Positions 20,241-58,416 are shown, counted from the first letter of the stretch. The stretch is 64,000 nucleotides of DNA from a virus (IMGVR_UViG_3300023053_000001:32001-96000); one strand, 5' to 3'. The notes: generated by a model not told the origin, from the sequence alone. A program made the numbers and translations.

Positions 20241-20277
20241 AGCTTGTCGGGGGACTTCGGTCCCCCGGCAGGCTTTT
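20241..20277 (+). terminator. Intrinsic terminator
   Basis: agcttgtcgggggac-ttcg-gtcccccggcaggct-ttt. Confidence 0.85.
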
Positions 20278-20285
20278 ATGCCGCG

Positions 20286-20311
20286 TCATCGTAAACATTT
20301 ACAAACCTACA
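20286..20311 (+). promoter_or_regulatory. 26-bp motif, copy 1 (putative promoter)
   Basis: tcatcgtaaacatttacaaacctaca; 25/26 identical to 40777-40802. Confidence 0.6.
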
Positions 20312-20392
20312 TTATCCAATGGCTAGTACCCACCAGCCCTCTCCGCGATTTTAGGCGGGCTAGTCCATTTATGTTCAGATGAGAAACCAATC

Positions 20393-31401: not shown

Positions 31402-33117
31402 ATGGCTGTTTTGACAAGGCGCAATAAAGGAGAGCTGGCCAGTCACTGGCCCAGCCATCTGCCGGAGTGGTTGTGCCACATCTACGCAGCACGTGGGGTT
31501 ACCTCCGCCCACGAACTGGATCGTCGTCTTTGCAACCTCATCAGCCCCTCGCTGATGGGTGGCATTGAGAAGGTCGTGGAGGTGATGTGTGATGCCGTGA
31601 CGACCGGTAAGCACATCACCGTTGCGGGCGACTACGACTGTGACGGTGCTACAGGCACCGCTACGGCCGTACGTGGCCTTCGTCTGCTTGGAGCCAAGAA
31701 GGTATCGTTCATCGTACCGGATCGCTTCAAGCACGGTTACGGGCTGTCTCCGGCCCTAGTGGATGCGATGGACCCGACCACGGAAGTGATCGTGACTGTC
31801 GATAGCGGCACTTCCTCCATGGAAGGTGTCGTACACGCCAAATCCCTCGGTCGTACTGTGGTGGTCACCGATCACCATTTGCCGGCTGAGTACCTGCCTC
31901 CGGTTGATGCCATCGTCAACCCGAATCTGAAGGGCGATCCGTTCCCTTCCAAGATGCTGGCCGGTGTAGGCGTGATGTTCTACGTGCTGTGCGCCATGCG
32001 CAAGCAGCTACGGGAACAGGGTTGGTTCCGGGAAGAACTTCCGGACCTGACCACACTGTTGGATCTGGTGGCCATCGGCACAGTCGCCGACTTGGTGCCG
32101 CTGGATCACAACAACCGTATTTTGGTCGAGGCGGGATTGAACAACATCCGCAATGGCCGTACCAGTCAAGGTGTGCTGGCACTGATCACCTCGGCCGGTA
32201 AGAATTACCAAACGCTCACTGCTACCGACATCGGGTTCTCCGTCGCCCCGCGGCTCAATGCCGCAGGACGATTGGAGAACATGGCATTGGGCGTTATTGC
32301 TTTGCTTTGCGATGAGAAGGAACGGGCAGAGGCGTTGGTCCATCAGCTGGAAAAGATCAATACCGATCGCCGTGAGAAACAAGCCAGCATGATCGAAGAG
32401 GCCGAGCGTATCGCAGCCTCTACCGAGAAAGCTGATGGGATGGGCATTACCGTCTACGATCCGACATGGCATGCCGGTCTGGTTGGACTGGTGGCCTCAC
32501 GACTGAAAGAGTCGATGTGGCGTCCGGTGTTTGCACTGGCCTCGGCCGGTGAGGACCATCCCGATGAAGTACGTGGCTCCGGTCGTTCCATCCCAGGATT
32601 CCATTTGCGTGATGCCCTGTCCATTGTGGATGCGCGCAACCCGGGACTGATGCCCAAGTACGGTGGCCATGCAATGGCCGCAGGTCTGAGTCTGAAGACG
32701 GCTGACATTCCTCGATTCACCAAAGCCTTCGATGACGCAGCTCGTGAAATGCTGACGCCAGACATGCTGGAAGTGGAGATCATCTCTGAAGGCGAATTGC
32801 CGGCAGGGCAGATCAACCTTGATACCGGTTGGCTGTTGCGTCGATCCGGTCCGTGGGGTCAGTTGTTCCCCGAACCTGTGTTTGATGGCGTCTTCGACGT
32901 GGTCAATTTCAAGATCATGGGGAAAGACCAGACCCATCTGAAACTTACGTTGGCCGATGTCCGCGATGGGTCCACTGTGGATGCCATCTGGTTCGGCGGT
33001 TACGCCAAGGGCGAAGATCCGCCCAAGCGTTGCCGTGTCGGGTACACCCTCGACGTCAACATCTACTATAGCCGACAAACGCCCCAGCTGATGGTGCGTT
33101 TCTTAGAGGGAGTTTGA
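31402..33117 (+). CDS. recJ: Single-stranded-DNA-specific exonuclease RecJ
   Basis: GDYDCDG, TVDSG, TDHH, GTVAD, PRLNAAGRL, GSGRSI, GGHAMAAG. Confidence 0.97.
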   Translation: MAVLTRRNKGELASHWPSHLPEWLCHIYAARGVTSAHELDRRLCNLISPSLMGGIEKVVEVMCDAVTTGKHITVAGDYDCDGATGTATAVRGLRLLGAKKVSFIVPDRFKHGYGLSPALVDAMDPTTEVIVTVDSGTSSMEGVVHAKSLGRTVVVTDHHLPAEYLPPVDAIVNPNLKGDPFPSKMLAGVGVMFYVLCAMRKQLREQGWFREELPDLTTLLDLVAIGTVADLVPLDHNNRILVEAGLNNIRNGRTSQGVLALITSAGKNYQTLTATDIGFSVAPRLNAAGRLENMALGVIALLCDEKERAEALVHQLEKINTDRREKQASMIEEAERIAASTEKADGMGITVYDPTWHAGLVGLVASRLKESMWRPVFALASAGEDHPDEVRGSGRSIPGFHLRDALSIVDARNPGLMPKYGGHAMAAGLSLKTADIPRFTKAFDDAAREMLTPDMLEVEIISEGELPAGQINLDTGWLLRRSGPWGQLFPEPVFDGVFDVVNFKIMGKDQTHLKLTLADVRDGSTVDAIWFGGYAKGEDPPKRCRVGYTLDVNIYYSRQTPQLMVRFLEGV

Positions 33118-40730: not shown

Positions 40731-40776
40731 GCGTCACGCCCCTCCTGCCTTCGGGCGGGAGGGGTTTTATGCCGGA

Positions 40777-40802
40777 TCATCGTAAACAATTACAAACCTA
40801 CA
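40777..40802 (+). promoter_or_regulatory. 26-bp motif, copy 2 (putative promoter)
   Basis: tcatcgtaaacaattacaaacctaca. Confidence 0.6.
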
Positions 40803-40880
40803 ACATCCATATGCTACCCATAAGGATCGAATGTTCGGTCGGCGTAGCTTTCTGTTGTTTATACCTATTGAGAGGTAGCG

Positions 40881-44495: not shown

Positions 44496-44539
44496 TCCCT
44501 AACCCCACTCCTTAACCGGGGTGGGGTTTTATTCCCTCT

Positions 44540-45256
44540 GTGAGAACCCCGATGAGCACCCGATCCAATTCCTACTATCACCTCGCCATTGCTCAGCAGT
44601 TCTATCTGGCCATGCGCGGCACGCCCGTGCCGGCCCAGCTGCCGCTGTACCAGCCCCACCAGAACCCCGACACCGGCCTGTACCGCTACGATGATAACGG
44701 CCTGCTGGCAGTTTACCTGGAGTCGTCCATTGCCGATACGCTGCTGGCCGTGTTCGAACGCACCGACGAAGCTGCGGTGAACTACTGCAGCGTGGCGTTG
44801 ATCATCAACGGCCAGATCATCGAAGACGTGCGTGATCCCAAGTACCGCACCGGTTCCAGCGAACGCCTGGCGGCGCTGGACAACGACATGATGCGGCGCT
44901 TTGCCGAACAGGCGCGCGATGAGATCACTGGTCCGTCGATGGATCAGGAGATCGTGTACCTGTGCGGGTACGTGCACCAGTATCCGGATCGTCCCTCCCA
45001 GATCTTCTTCTGGACGGGTAACCCGGAACATCCCTTCGTCATCGACAAGGAAGTGGAACTGGCTCTGCCGTTCCTGAACTTCAATGCCGCCACGATCATG
45101 GGCAACATCCTGGATTCGGCCCGTGAAGTGCTGGGCGTCACCGATCCGGACTGCGTGTTCACCGGCATGACGGTGCAGCTGAAAGAGCAGATCAGCAATC
45201 ACGCTGAGCCCACCCCGGAAGAGCTGATTGCCTCGGCGGATAAGCAGCTGCGCTGA
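44540..45256 (+). CDS. Hypothetical protein (about 235 aa)
   Basis: Long ORF with strong codon bias. Confidence 0.8.
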   Translation: MRTPMSTRSNSYYHLAIAQQFYLAMRGTPVPAQLPLYQPHQNPDTGLYRYDDNGLLAVYLESSIADTLLAVFERTDEAAVNYCSVALIINGQIIEDVRDPKYRTGSSERLAALDNDMMRRFAEQARDEITGPSMDQEIVYLCGYVHQYPDRPSQIFFWTGNPEHPFVIDKEVELALPFLNFNAATIMGNILDSAREVLGVTDPDCVFTGMTVQLKEQISNHAEPTPEELIASADKQLR

Positions 45257-45454
45257 GGTAAAAAATAGTCGTGAAGGCTATGTGTATGGACGGGGTCTGT
45301 GAAAATAGACCCCGGTTTCATACCTAGATATTCTGCCACACTTCCGGAGATGCTTTACAACCTGGCAATACCCACACTCACCGTCACATTCCGCGCATGA
45401 GAAACCGCAGACTTCTGTACGACGTTGGGCACAGTTCTTCCAGAGATAACGATC

Positions 45455-46081
45455 GTGTTCAAGATTTCCACTCAGATTTTCCTGCTCTTTGTTGCGTTGA
45501 TGTTGTCGGCGTGTGCCAACCTGGCTGATCGCTCCTCCACCTACATCGCAACCGCTCCTGTCGGCGTACCGGAATTCCCGGTCATTGCAGTTCTGGACAT
45601 TCCGCCGATGGAAGTCAAGGAACTGCCGATCCCGATCGTCCCATTGAACGAGCGTGCGCGCATCGTCATGAGTGAGGCCGAGATCCAATGCATGGCTCGC
45701 AACATGTACCACGAAGCACGTGGTGAAGGCGATACCGGCATGATTGCCGTTGGGTACGTGGTACTCAACCGCATGGGTTCCAAACGGTTTGACACGCGCA
45801 CCGTGTGCGCTACGGTCAACAAATCTGGCATCGTCAAAAAGACCGGTAAGCGGTCGTGCCAGTTCAGCTGGGTCTGTGCAGGGCGTACTGTCGCCTCCGG
45901 AGCCAAATCACAAGCGTCGTATGAGCGTGCACTGACGCTCGCACGGCAGGTTATGCTGCGATCGGTAGAGAACCCGATTGATGACAGCGTCTACTTCCAC
46001 AACAAAACAGTGCGCCCCTCCTACGCCCGAGAAGCGTATCGTGGGATCATAGGAGCACATCGCTTCTACGCATCTATCTGA
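45455..46081 (+). CDS. SleB-like cell wall hydrolase, predicted lipoprotein
   Basis: Signal peptide with lipobox LSAC; CMARNMYHEARGE, VGYVVLNR, CQFSW, YFH, IGAHRFY. Confidence 0.88.
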   Translation: MFKISTQIFLLFVALMLSACANLADRSSTYIATAPVGVPEFPVIAVLDIPPMEVKELPIPIVPLNERARIVMSEAEIQCMARNMYHEARGEGDTGMIAVGYVVLNRMGSKRFDTRTVCATVNKSGIVKKTGKRSCQFSWVCAGRTVASGAKSQASYERALTLARQVMLRSVENPIDDSVYFHNKTVRPSYAREAYRGIIGAHRFYASI

Positions 46082-46843: not shown

Positions 46844-46894
46844 CATAAGCCCCTCCTCCCGCAATGGGAGGAGGGGCTCTATGCTTTTTCTTTT
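46844..46894. terminator. Hairpin between convergent genes
   Basis: agcccctcctccc-gcaat-gggaggaggggct then T-tract. Confidence 0.75.
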
Positions 46895-53755: not shown

Positions 53756-53887
53756 CATAAGCCCCTCCTCCTTCACGGGAGGAGGGGTTCTATGCCGTGT
53801 TTTAAAACAGATCGGGTATATGCATTGGAACTTATTTCACCCACACATTACTCCCTTGTTCAACCACCCTCAATGACATAGCCAACC

Positions 53888-54338: not shown

Positions 54339-54773
54339 ATGTTCAAGCGCAAGATTCGCATCAGCGAGCAGATTTTTGACTCCATTGCTGATGCTGCCCG
54401 GTTCCTCAACGTATGTCCCTTGTCGCTGCGTAACTGGATCAAGTCCTCCAATCCGAAGTGGGCGCACATCCGTTACGAAGACCAAGAAAAAGTCAGCGTA
54501 GTGACCCGCACCAAAAACGTGCGGGTTTGCTATCGCGGCAAGCTGTATGATTCGTTGTCTATCGCCGCTCGCGCCAACCAACTCACCGCGCCGGCCATTG
54601 CCCACGCCATCAACAGCGAACACCATCCGGACTGTTACTACCTCAAGTCCAATGGTGAGCGTATCAAGCACGTCGAAAAGCCGAAGTACCGTATCTCCGA
54701 GCAGACCCGGCAGCGTGCCGTGAAAGCTCAGCAAAGGCGCCAGTTCTTCCAAGAGCTGAACGCCATCCCCTAA
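54339..54773 (+). CDS. Tandem NUMOD1-like HTH DNA-binding protein without nuclease domain (144 aa)
   Basis: QIFDSIADAARFLNVCPLSLRNWI and KLYDSLSIAARANQLTAPAIAHAI. Confidence 0.65.
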   Translation: MFKRKIRISEQIFDSIADAARFLNVCPLSLRNWIKSSNPKWAHIRYEDQEKVSVVTRTKNVRVCYRGKLYDSLSIAARANQLTAPAIAHAINSEHHPDCYYLKSNGERIKHVEKPKYRISEQTRQRAVKAQQRRQFFQELNAIP

Positions 54774-55541: not shown

Positions 55542-56156
55542 ATGAATGACCTCACCCTGCATAAGAACTTCACCCTGCACGTCTACCGCGATGCCGGTGA
55601 AGACCAGCGTGTCCGTTCCACCACCATGAACATGCTGGACATGCCCACCGCGCAGGAACTGTCGGCGGTGATGGACACGCTCAAGCTGCCCAAGGACGGT
55701 TACGCCAAGGTCACCGCGCTCGGTGACTGGAAGGCACTGTCGGGAAACCGTCAGGTGCTGTACCGTGCCTATCGCATCGATGTGGTGGGCGACGATCGCG
55801 ACATCGAGAACGTGGTGCTGTACCAGAACAACCGCAACGTTGCTGGCCGCTACCTGCTGCCGTACGTGGCCGTCCATCTGGACAGCGACTGGAACGATGC
55901 GGAAGTGCTGCGTGAAGCGGTCGATGCGATCCTGTGGCGCTGGGGCGTTGATGCAGCCAGCGGCTTCGACATCGACTTCACCACCCGCCACGACGTCGGC
56001 GAAGACATCAAGCACATCGATCGCCTGCTGTCCCGCCACGAGTATCCCTTCGGCGCCGGTGCGCGTTCGGTCCGCTACGATCGCCGCAACAACGCCATCA
56101 TCGCCGAACTGACCAGCGACAAGGAGGCCAAGGATGTCGCATACCCCCGCCTCTGA
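55542..56156 (+). CDS. Hypothetical protein (204 aa)
   Basis: Strong codon bias. Confidence 0.75.
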   Translation: MNDLTLHKNFTLHVYRDAGEDQRVRSTTMNMLDMPTAQELSAVMDTLKLPKDGYAKVTALGDWKALSGNRQVLYRAYRIDVVGDDRDIENVVLYQNNRNVAGRYLLPYVAVHLDSDWNDAEVLREAVDAILWRWGVDAASGFDIDFTTRHDVGEDIKHIDRLLSRHEYPFGAGARSVRYDRRNNAIIAELTSDKEAKDVAYPRL

Positions 56157-56769
56157 CCAGACGGGCTTGCCCAAGGTGCGCATTTATCCCAAGCTCAAGG
56201 CTTGGGACAATGCCATCCGGGCAGTGCTGGGACAACTGAACGGCTCGGCGCTGCATGACGCTCTCCGCGCCGCGGCGATCTATGCCACTAAGAACCATCC
56301 GCAGGGGATCTATTGGCTCAACCCCACGCACGTGATGTTGAGCTACAAGGACCACAGCTTGGTGTTCTTCGGCAATGTGGCTGGCGGGATCGAACAGGCA
56401 GCCGGGCAGTTCATGGCCATCAGCGAGACCAATCATCGGTATCGCTGGTTCAGTCCCTCGTACTGGATAGCGCGCAAGCAGCGCAAGCGGTTGACGAAGG
56501 TGGGTGAGCCGTCCAACATCACCCCACCCATCGTCGATCTGCTGCATTTCCGCCGACCATCCGAGTTCCCACCGGAGATGGACATCGTCTACGAATTCCT
56601 CCGGCAGTTGAGCCTGAGGGTCGGTGGCGATGACGTGTACTACAACACCTACAACATCTACAATGAGTTGGAAATCATGATCTGCACCGATCGGGCAACC
56701 TATTGGGCAGTGATTGATTTCACGGTGTTCGGCAACGAGAATGATGGGAAATTCCCAGTGGAACTGTAA
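56134..56769 (+). CDS. Hypothetical protein (211 aa)
   Basis: SD aaggagg. Confidence 0.75.
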   Translation: MSHTPASDQTGLPKVRIYPKLKAWDNAIRAVLGQLNGSALHDALRAAAIYATKNHPQGIYWLNPTHVMLSYKDHSLVFFGNVAGGIEQAAGQFMAISETNHRYRWFSPSYWIARKQRKRLTKVGEPSNITPPIVDLLHFRRPSEFPPEMDIVYEFLRQLSLRVGGDDVYYNTYNIYNELEIMICTDRATYWAVIDFTVFGNENDGKFPVEL

Positions 56770-56774
56770 TTTTC

Positions 56775-57575
56775 TACAGACCAAACTGATCTGATAGAGA
56801 GAGTTGTTGCAGTTGTCTGTGGAACGTGCCTGCGCTTCGGCGCTGCTGCCATACCCATTACCTTGACCGCCCAAGGTAGCAGACCCCCGGGTAAGCTGGG
56901 AAAGCCCGGTTTTCATCGACCCTTCGTGTGGTACCTGCCGTCCTCGCCAGGTATTGCGTGTTGGGTCGACCTTCTTCCATGTCATGCTGCACGGTGTACT
57001 TTTCCCTAAACGGGGGATGTCGTCTAGAACCGTAGCAGCGTGGCGCCTCTACGCCCTTGCCCATTGCCGCCAGCGTCGTCTACGGACTAACGCCGGCGCG
57101 TTGGGCCGGGCACCCTCCATGTTCGCCTCCGCGCGCTTTAGGCCACCGCGGTTACGCGCCGGCCAGTGCCGGAGGCGGACGCCATCGTTCGATCTTGCAA
57201 GCCCTCAGACAGGCTCAGCCGAATAGTAGAGCAGCAATGTTGTCCATCCTCGATCGTCCCGTTGCAACCACGCCTACTGGTGAGTTGCTAGGTGTGCGTC
57301 CTCATCTCCCCAGAGGGACGTGCGACCTGCTAACGGTAATAGACGGCACTCCTCCCTCCCCAGGGGCTGTGCAAACCCCAATCGAGTCGGGCGTCCGCGC
57401 CTAAGAATGGATGGTCGCAGCTGCACGGTACCAGTGAGCATTCGCACTGGTCGAGTCGTGGGTAAAAATTGCAAGGTTCCCGTACCTCTTACTGATAATG
57501 AAGCTGGTCCGCACACGCGGATGGGTGGAGTCGACCTGAGGGGAATCAGCCGGTAAACGGGATAGCCGGTTTTTA
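56775..57575 (+). ncRNA. Candidate large structured ncRNA (about 800 nt)
   Basis: No credible ORF; C(UUCG)G hairpin 56832-56843, helices 56916-56922/56963-56969, 56986-56995/57029-57039 and 57430-57436/57445-57451; hairpin terminator after. Confidence 0.5.
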
Positions 57576-57580
57576 CATAT

Positions 57581-57619
57581 AAGCCCCTCCTACCTTCGGG
57601 TGGGAGGGGCTTTATGCCG
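57581..57619 (+). terminator. Terminator hairpin
   Basis: aagcccctcctacc-ttcg-ggtgggaggggcttt-atgccg. Confidence 0.8.
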
Positions 57620-57672
57620 CTGTATTTTATTGCTCCACATACCCATCTAATAACTACCAGGGGGCCACCAAC

Positions 57673-58416
57673 ATGTACGAAGCATCAGATGTACTGCAAG
57701 AAGAGCGCGTCCATCACATGAACGCACTCACCAAAGGTTTGACCCAGGCATCGCACGAAGTACCCCACCTCGATCCTGTGATCGATGTCCTGCACCACAG
57801 CTTCCGTACCGCCCTCAAGAACGTCTCCAGCCGACTGGGCCTGATGTCCATGGACGTCTCCTCCCATGTCGTGGATGACAACGCATTCCTCTTCAACCTG
57901 CGCGACCACCGCAAGTTGATTCGCAACCGGCATACCGGCAGGACCGAGCACGCTGCGCAGCATTCCCACGCCCATCGTCCGCTGCTGCGTGTGTACGCCC
58001 GCAAGGCGTCGGTGTTCTCGCGCATCCGTCGCCTCAGCCGCCGACTGACAGCGACGGCCACTGCGGCCAAGCCCGTCGAGATCCTGCAGTATCTGGTGGA
58101 TCTGGAAAAGAACGCAATGGCAGCGCCCATGGCCTGTCCCGAACAGTGCCGCTTCCTGGCCACCGTGTTCCAGGAACTGCTGGCCCACGGTTTCTTGCCT
58201 GAGGCAGTGAGTGCTCACCAAGGGCACTTTGACCAGAGCGACGCAGAACAGGCGGTGGGCCATCGCACGTGGGCCGGTCCCGATACCTACCAAGTCATGC
58301 TGGCCAATCGTGACATCGAAGTGTTCTTCAACGTACGTCCGAGGGGGCTGTACGAATTCGGCGAGATGCCGGAGATGAACCATTACGTCGAGGAACGGCA
58401 AACGGCCGTGGCCTAA
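57673..58416 (+). CDS. Hypothetical protein (247 aa)
   Basis: Intact ORF. Confidence 0.7.
   Translation: MYEASDVLQEERVHHMNALTKGLTQASHEVPHLDPVIDVLHHSFRTALKNVSSRLGLMSMDVSSHVVDDNAFLFNLRDHRKLIRNRHTGRTEHAAQHSHAHRPLLRVYARKASVFSRIRRLSRRLTATATAAKPVEILQYLVDLEKNAMAAPMACPEQCRFLATVFQELLAHGFLPEAVSAHQGHFDQSDAEQAVGHRTWAGPDTYQVMLANRDIEVFFNVRPRGLYEFGEMPEMNHYVEERQTAVA

Follow-up and report, generated by a model that had tools for sequence, protein, structure and literature searches.

A probable structured non-coding RNA gene of about 800 nt, conserved between two orphan genes in an uncultivated soil relative of phiKZ-type jumbo phages

What is encoded by a long gene-free interval in a phage genome whose genes otherwise leave hardly any space between them? 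The question arose in a 64-kb stretch of DNA (the window), taken from a virus record of 268,458 bp that carries direct terminal repeats (IMGVR_UViG_3300023053_000001, bases 32001-96000); positions are given in window coordinates, and those within the RNA are approximate. Genes of the window are tightly packed, lie mostly on the + strand and have a G+C content of about 58%. The interval 56770-57672 is free of genes and sits between two orphan genes on the + strand (56134-56769, 211 aa, and 57673-58416, 247 aa). An earlier reading of the sequence alone (the original prediction) had taken most of this interval for a large structured non-coding RNA on the + strand. Our analysis makes it probable that 56775-57615 (+) is a conserved structured non-coding RNA gene of approximately 800-840 nt. 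On the best reading the RNA is new as a family and of a known general kind, that of large structured non-coding RNAs.

The analysis of base composition revealed no trace of translation. In the flanking genes the G+C content is about 0.8 at third and about 0.35 at second codon positions, while the interval is flat, with 0.5-0.7 in all three. Stop-free frames of 115-136 codons are present on both strands, as expected at 58% G+C. The longest open reading frames (ORFs) of the gap in three lineages differ in position and strand and none of them is conserved. One translated gap frame was searched for protein relatives and none was found; the single match of another frame, to a BIG2-like repeat protein, was discarded as a compositional artefact. 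The interval 56770-57672 is non-coding, in agreement with the earlier statement that no credible ORF exists there amid tightly packed genes.

Relatives of the flanking proteins were located on Logan assemblies. The upstream protein is 95% identical to its counterpart in contig L023 and 51% to that in L024/L025, and the downstream protein is 68% identical to that of L017, a 1.25-kb contig, and 39% to that of L016, a 270-kb contig. Between the same two genes lies a gene-free gap of 903 nt in L023, 819 nt in L024/L025 and 911 nt in L016; the L017 contig starts within the 3′ part of the element. The comparison therefore covers the window, L023, L024/L025, L016 and the 3′ fragment L017. Each of the two flanking ORFs is in every lineage a complete gene, distinct from the other and with a start and a stop of its own, and in L016 gene order matches over 12 kb, from a DUF7941 virion protein through five small genes, the gap and a 233-aa gene on to DHFR. 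The element has thus retained its place beside this pair of orphan genes in at least three further lineages.

Anchored realignment gave gap identities over aligned positions of 72% (window-L024), 62% (window-L016) and 58% (L024-L016). Flanking proteins of the distant lineages are only 39-51% identical, yet invariant blocks run through the aligned gaps. The blocks are TCTACAG, TAGAGAGAG, GTTGCA, TTCTTCCATG, CTCGATC, TCCCCAGAGG, CCCTCCCC and CCGGTA(G)AACGGGATAGCCGG. Conservation sets in sharply with the upstream stop codon, and the final 100 nt of the ORF before it are poorly conserved. Differences between lineages mostly consist of whole hairpins gained or lost.

Conservation of structure was assessed by shuffling alignment columns, which proved to be the decisive test. 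The consensus energy of the gap alignment was -196, compared with -127 ± 8.5 for shuffled alignments (z -8.1), while three flanking genes from the same genomes gave z values of -2.4, -0.4 and +0.2. Each part of the element was significant by itself, the 5′ domain with z -5.6, the 3′ core with z -8.3 and the 3′ tail with z -3.6. Pairs predicted from the minimum free energy (MFE) structure of one lineage survived in another more often in the gap than in coding controls, both where two sides had changed (57% against 41%) and where one side had changed (33% against 21%). The structure conservation index averaged 0.40 in the gap (maximum 0.66) and 0.26-0.28 in the controls (maximum 0.46). An energy-free scan counted helices that form in all three lineages, are 5 bp or longer and have two or more compensatory pairs; the gap had five and the controls 0-1.

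The sub-domain 57248-57375 was realigned to a covariance model. It has 36 pairs with 94% of cells paired, and 15 of the 36 were changed on both sides, compared with 4.8 ± 1.9 in shuffles (none of 500 as high); when partners were slid, 0-4 pairs were changed on both sides. Over the lineages, helix cells of the structure predicted on the + strand contain 81 G-U and 9 A-C combinations. The reverse complement of the alignment gave a consensus energy of -161 (z -6.2). The + strand proposed earlier is thus favoured by the better consensus energy, by the orientation of the terminator and by the strand of the flanking genes. Taken with the shared invariant blocks, the hairpin insertions and the compensatory changes, the consensus z of -8.1 supports the proposal of a large structured non-coding RNA.

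The individual hairpins named beforehand were all found, at or within a few bases of where they had been placed. On the + strand these are GCGC-UUCG-GCGC (56832-56843), taccttg/caaggta (56859-56879), ccggg/cccgg (56887-56909), tcgaccc/gggtcga with its inner stem (56917-56969), gctgc-acggt/accgt-a-gcagc (56986-57040), cgcg-gtta-cgcg (57148-57159), accagtg/cactggt (57431-57450) and gtccgc/gcggat (57508-57523). The single-sequence MFE of the + strand was -369.9 kcal/mol against -326 ± 6.7 for dinucleotide shuffles (z -6.6), and the - strand gave z -4.0. Folding is therefore better than in shuffled controls, which is a weak test when taken alone. For calibration, 845-nt windows were taken at 16 other places in the phage, largely in coding sequence, and treated in the same way; most gave z from +0.3 to -2.9. 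The two most strongly folding of these windows are 31500-32344, inside a RecJ-like gene (z -11.5, 12 shuffles), and 44500-45344, over the ORF 44540-45256 (z -6.5, 12 shuffles); embedded RNA structure or repeats could be the cause. A separate, small non-coding gap of approximately 170-270 nt with flat codon-position G+C lies within 45190-45460, between the ORFs 44540-45256 and 45425-46081.

The RNA consists of two multi-helix domains and a conserved 3′ tail, and it ends in the phage's own terminator module. The interval opens with a conserved, relatively A+T-rich block on the + strand (56770-56812; TTTTCTACAG, CTGATC, ATAGAGAGAG and GTTGCAG in this order), which starts directly after the upstream stop codon. 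With up to three mismatches allowed, the block has no second copy in the genome, and for this reason it was rejected as a reiterated promoter consensus. It could be the 5′ leader of the RNA or its private promoter; the leader is favoured because helix P1, which lies inside it, carries two compensatory pairs.

The 5′ domain (56793-57174) comprises five local helices and hairpins, the nested P5 and the long P6. P1 (56793-97/56813-17), P2 (56818-22/56849-53) and P3 (56858-65/56872-79) each have two compensatory pairs, and P2 surrounds the UUCG hairpin at 56828-46. P4 (56887-92/56904-09) carries a conserved loop, UAAG..GAAAG, and is kept as a hairpin in all three lineages. It is followed by the tcgaccc...gggtcga hairpin with its inner stem (56914-56971, 57 nt), found only in the window and L023; in the anchored alignment it is a clean insertion, relative to L024 and L016, between P4 and the invariant single strand UUCUUCCAUG (56972-81). 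Further downstream are P5 (56981-95/57029-44, with an inner hairpin at 56998-57020), the long hairpin P6 (57055-57110, six compensatory pairs) and a variable arm at 57121-57180, which is missing in L024.

The 3′ core (57191-57478) is a multi-helix junction. Its closing helix (57191-57204/57460-57478) spans about 280 nt and nine of its 13 pairs are compensatory. Within it are the helices 57231-35/57420-24 and 57265-71/57280-87, a hairpin at 57291-57326 with the invariant apex UCUCCCCAGAGG, a hairpin at 57351-54/57363-66 whose 4-bp stem has three compensatory pairs and bears the invariant loop CCUCCCCA, and a hairpin at 57431-36/57445-50. The inner helix GCAGC/GCUGC becomes GUAGC/GCUAC in L016, and this change fixes which of the two GCUGCACGGU copies pairs in it. 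Both arms of the closing helix contain the self-complementary UUGCAA in the window lineage, the only hint at a possible self-assembly into multimers; it is not conserved in L024.

Sequence conservation is highest in the 3′ tail (57484-57582), which contains a helix (57485-88/57538-41), a hairpin (57503-11/57518-26), the block GGGUGGAGU and a 6-bp hairpin (57549-54/57565-70) with the loop AAACGGGAUA, invariant in four lineages. Here 95% of cells are paired, and the tail shows little covariation because it is almost invariant: a single compensatory change, C-G to U-A, occurs in L017.

Several other features of the RNA were recorded. Three internal direct repeats are present: 56956-56982 and 57096-57122 (27 nt, 74% identity), CTCCCCAG(A/G)GG at 57306-57316 and 57356-57366, and GCTGCACGGT at 56986-56995 and 57420-57429. 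They hint that the RNA may have grown by duplication of modules, or that alternative or intermolecular pairings may form. Two candidate pairings were rejected for lack of conservation: that of the loop AACGGGA with UCCCGUU at 57258-64 (not kept in L016 or L024), and one of P3 with the terminator that would have made an antiterminator (not kept in L024). An enrichment of the CCUCC motif (by eye about 4-5 against about 1.4 expected) was too small to carry an argument.

The last 39 nt of the element (57581-57619) read AAGCCCCTCCTACC-TTCG-GGTGGGAGGGGCTT-TATGCCG and correspond to an intrinsic terminator of the phiKZ type: a 14-bp hairpin with a C-rich and a G-rich arm (57581-57612) and a UUCG loop is followed by CTTTATGCCG. 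The hairpin has three compensatory pairs among the lineages and is probably the 3′ end of the RNA. Owing to its U-tract, UUUAU, it escaped a simple terminator scan. In phiKZ, 61 terminators mapped by ONT-cappable-seq share the motif 5′-BCCYCCCCHWWDGGGRRGGBYTTATKYYGT-3′ (PMC10914365). The element has the same order of C-rich arm, short loop and G-rich arm, and its tail CTTTATGCCG fits YTTATKYYG; it differs from the consensus in its longer stem and in having C, not T, at the last position. A terminal terminator had been predicted and is indeed present, but it is not special to this RNA. A pattern scan of the window for the hairpin-plus-TATG module gave six matches with none expected, each a CCCCTCC..GGAGGGG hairpin followed by (T)TATGCCG (1389-1417, 14242-14273 on the - strand, 40739-40771, 46850-46883, 53762-53794 and 57584-57616), and there are 47 TATGCCG sites in the genome, most of them directly after a G+C-rich hairpin. 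The module is thus conserved in a distant, 58% G+C soil relative of phiKZ. It accounts for the 3′ end only and not for the 800-nt body.

Some copies of the module in the genome have a mirrored CGGCATA 5′ of the hairpin as well, which points to bidirectional sites. The start-site (late-promoter) consensus of the phiKZ non-virion RNA polymerase is likewise TATG (PMC12809450), and the TATG of the terminator may restart transcription of the downstream gene. Directly after the terminator, GCTGTATTTT (57619-57628) is invariant in all lineages and has a 5-nt complementarity, without covariation, to the invariant UACAG at 56775-56779. TATGCCG(T)CTGTAT is the continuation after the terminators of both large RNAs of this phage, at 57619-57628 for the present one and at 15752-15762 for the other. 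Elsewhere, two near-identical A+T-rich stretches of about 35 nt (GTCATCGTAAACAWTTACAAACCTACAWYATC; 20277-20321 and 40768-40812) lie directly after terminator modules and may represent a repeated promoter or leader element.

Is the interval transcribed? The stretch is contained in 21 soil metatranscriptome runs, and the four with the lowest share were mapped as assembled contigs over 18 kb; depths are contig means, not read depths, and neither uncovered parts nor contig ends were taken as evidence of transcript ends. The two bins of the gap were the highest in the 18-kb stretch, with depths of 15.9/25.1, 5.0/18.9, 26.6/15.1 and 93.6/2.6 in the four runs. Other bins had depths of about 0-10, mostly 1-6, and those adjoining the gap were among the lowest (0-2.1 upstream, 0-1.7 downstream). 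Overall, gap contigs were about 4-20 times deeper than those of neighbouring genes, which fits an accumulating RNA without proving a discrete transcript. No terminator was found between the upstream ORF and the gap, and processing from an upstream operon is as possible a route to the RNA as a promoter of its own.

The gene content of the window, with RNR, a RecJ-like nuclease, a head protease and virion proteins, is typical of phiKZ-like jumbo phages. The nearest cultured relatives, identified through a conserved neighbouring gene, are jumbo phages of Xanthomonas, Ralstonia and Burkholderia, Goslar and a Pseudomonas phage. The carrier is an uncultivated soil relative of phiKZ-type (nucleus-forming) jumbo phages and belongs to a small clade; the hint at jumbo phages in the original prediction was therefore a good one. 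The search for homologues in such phages had a divided outcome: syntenic counterparts with compensatory changes were found in L023, L024/L025, L016 and L017, but cultured Xanthomonas jumbo phages were empty. Three covariance models (R1-R3) and blastn gave nothing credible (best E 0.29-1.2) in Xanthomonas phages RTH11, Xoo-sp14 and LucasX and in a 324-kb IMG/VR record. Nor do the three cultured phages have the two flanking orphan genes or a gap of 800 nt ahead of their conserved phrog_14791 gene, which places the RNA in an island specific to its lineage. The two flanking proteins, which served as synteny anchors, matched no Pfam or PHROG family, and the predicted model of the downstream protein (pLDDT 67.6) had no PDB fold match.

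Wider searches added no relatives. The window, L024 and L016 versions had none by blastn among 50,697 phage records. Of three exact-pattern scans of IMG/VR, two were empty and one yielded a single chance match within an 882-codon ORF. A pattern for the invariant hairpin gave four matches in JGI metagenomes and six in GTDB genomes, all chance 20-mers with dissimilar surroundings. Locus searches using single flanking proteins or an alignment of the downstream protein gave nothing useful, one of them returning only the distant 324-kb relative without the RNA.

Does the element belong to a known RNA class? The proposed comparison with Rfam was carried out and returned no match at gathering score in the whole window; at E ≤ 10 the region 56600-57800 gave only three sub-threshold small RNA matches, all on terminator hairpins, and at E ≤ 1 the homologous loci of L024 and L016 gave none. 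Among the 4227 covariance models, RNase P RNA, tmRNA, SRP, 6S, OLE, HEARO, raiA and the other families did not match, and ARAGORN found neither a tRNA gene nor a tmRNA in the window. The earlier description of the RNA as of unknown class, with no group II domain V, RNase P or tmRNA signature recognised, thus holds.

The closest likeness is to GOLLD (RF01998) and ROOL (RF03087) of phages and prophages, which, like the present RNA, are phage-encoded, about 600-800 nt or longer, rich in helices, of unknown function and apparently abundant. These large, ornate RNAs form RNA-only cages, and the 3′ region of GOLLD is well conserved and its 5′ region more variable (PMC12286853), a distribution also seen in the present RNA. 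However, models RF01998 and RF03087 match neither the window nor the homologues, no tRNA genes lie near the present RNA whereas GOLLD and ROOL are often found beside tRNA islands, and the carrier, a virulent-type phiKZ-like soil jumbo phage, is unlike their setting. By the covariance models and the tRNA association the RNA is a member of neither family.

The non-coding RNAs described for phiKZ are shorter than 200 nt and mostly products of premature termination or processing of mRNA leaders (PMC10914365). They resemble the present RNA in phage group, in the type of terminator module and in having no assigned function, but they are 4-9 times smaller and conserved multi-domain folds were not reported for them in that study. 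Within the same genome a structured RNA of about 780 nt at 14878-15693 is similar in size, likewise ends in a terminator and has no Rfam family; nhmmer, blastn and three covariance models gave no match to the present RNA at that locus on the + strand. A 2025 review of nucleus-forming phages does not mention non-coding RNA, and in the literature searched no large structured non-coding RNA is on record for these phages.

A number of observations weigh against an RNA gene and have to be set beside the evidence above. Only three full lineages and one fragment are known, so that covariation statistics are thin. RNAalifold predicted 196-253 pairs in the gap, 43-62 of them compensatory, but flanking-gene alignments gave 42-55, and such counts therefore do not discriminate with three lineages. 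Likewise, three of the 16 control windows reached MFE z values of -4.9, -6.5 and -11.5, and so the single-sequence value supports structure but cannot decide. The depth comparison is biased, as runs were selected for containing the stretch; the studies behind them may be one campaign, RNA libraries can contain DNA, and contigs give neither RNA ends nor strand. Two deep contigs (57070-58018 and 57319-57891) cross the terminator into the downstream gene, while in one run the deep contig spans 56814-57427 only. No recognisable promoter was found for the RNA, and no TATG-type promoter upstream. Finally, the neighbouring proteins give no hint at the function of the RNA, and nothing bears on it directly.

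Some of these observations could be explained if there were no independent RNA gene and the interval were a long structured untranslated region (UTR), either a processed 3′ UTR of the upstream operon or a leader or attenuator of the downstream gene. The missing promoter, the lack of a terminator behind the upstream ORF and the deep contigs that bridge into the downstream gene in two runs would agree with this, as would the finding that abundant non-coding RNAs of other phages arise by 3′-UTR processing without a start site of their own (PMC10914365). Gap contigs are nevertheless several-fold deeper than those of either neighbouring gene, the gap is set apart from the downstream gene by a strong terminator module, and a conserved two-domain fold of about 800 nt far exceeds any known leader. 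We regard a UTR as unlikely, though less so than the other alternatives; a processed 3′-UTR product would in any case still be a structured non-coding RNA, the difference being mainly one of biogenesis.

The remaining explanations are much weaker. The least probable of them is that the gap holds protein-coding sequence which has decayed or escaped recognition, be it a pseudogene, a gene with a frameshift or one or more small ORFs: the stop-free frames on both strands, which could be cited for it, are of the length expected by composition, and the absent codon-position pattern, the shifting place and strand of ORFs, the failure of translated frames to find genuine relatives and the coincidence of large indels with whole hairpins all speak against coding. 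An element whose inverted repeats act in DNA (for example an origin of replication, a site of packaging or partition, or an array bound by proteins) would account for the conserved blocks and the abundance of inverted repeats, along with the few direct repeats inside the interval. Helices are, however, maintained by compensatory changes and by G-U pairs that are impossible on the opposite strand, the + strand folds better than the - strand, RNA contigs are deeper over the gap than over its neighbours, and no iterons, A+T-rich unwinding element or GC-skew turn were found, which leaves this explanation with very little probability. Equally improbable is that the interval is left over from a self-splicing intron or other mobile RNA element whose host gene or endonuclease has been lost. 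Size and ornate fold resemble group I and II introns, and the interval lies in a variable island absent from cultured relatives. About 2 kb upstream in this island the ORF 54339-54773 has a sub-threshold match to the I-TevI DNA-binding domain (PF20987, E 8.7e-4, 19.6 bits, cut-off 27) and may be the remnant of a free-standing homing endonuclease. Still, no intron family matches in three lineages (window at E ≤ 10; L024 and L016 at E ≤ 1), the element ends in an ordinary terminator, and there are no exons to join because the flanking ORFs are complete, separate genes in every lineage.

How might a structured non-coding RNA of this kind work? It would be made from a promoter within 56770-56812 or processed from the transcript of the upstream operon, and would then accumulate owing to its compact fold. 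Acting as a scaffold or decoy, it might present invariant single-stranded elements, namely the loops CCUCCCCA, UCCCCAGA and AAACGGGAUA and the strand UUCUUCCAUG, on a conserved frame to a protein or RNA partner. We infer this from an anatomy in which the frame is conserved, the peripheral hairpins vary and a small number of exposed loops, pyrimidine-rich or containing GGGA, are invariant. Other large phage RNAs, GOLLD and ROOL, are thought to act in a similar manner. Among the alternatives such a mechanism is offered tentatively.

To our knowledge very few bacterial or phage RNA classes longer than about 400 nt exist, and each large class that we know of (ribozymes, OLE, GOLLD, ROOL) has shown unusual biochemistry or architecture. 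A bolder and rather improbable view is that the present RNA founds a new class of large ornate RNAs which only nucleus-forming jumbo phages possess, the same phage carrying at least two unrelated ones. If so, these RNAs might serve a job peculiar to the nucleus-forming lifestyle, in which RNA has to pass through the phage nucleus and the chief danger comes from RNA-targeting defences. They could possibly be abundant decoys or sponges for host RNA-targeting immunity, RNases or ribosomes, by way of invariant pyrimidine-rich loops (CCUCCCCA, UCCCCAGA and UUCUUCC) that resemble the anti-Shine-Dalgarno sequence, or alternatively they might form RNA-only assemblies like GOLLD and ROOL. The value of the finding is limited for now by the small uncultivated clade and the lack of a pointer to function. 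A conserved and apparently abundant RNA of 800 nt would nonetheless be a new player in the infection cycle of nucleus-forming phages.

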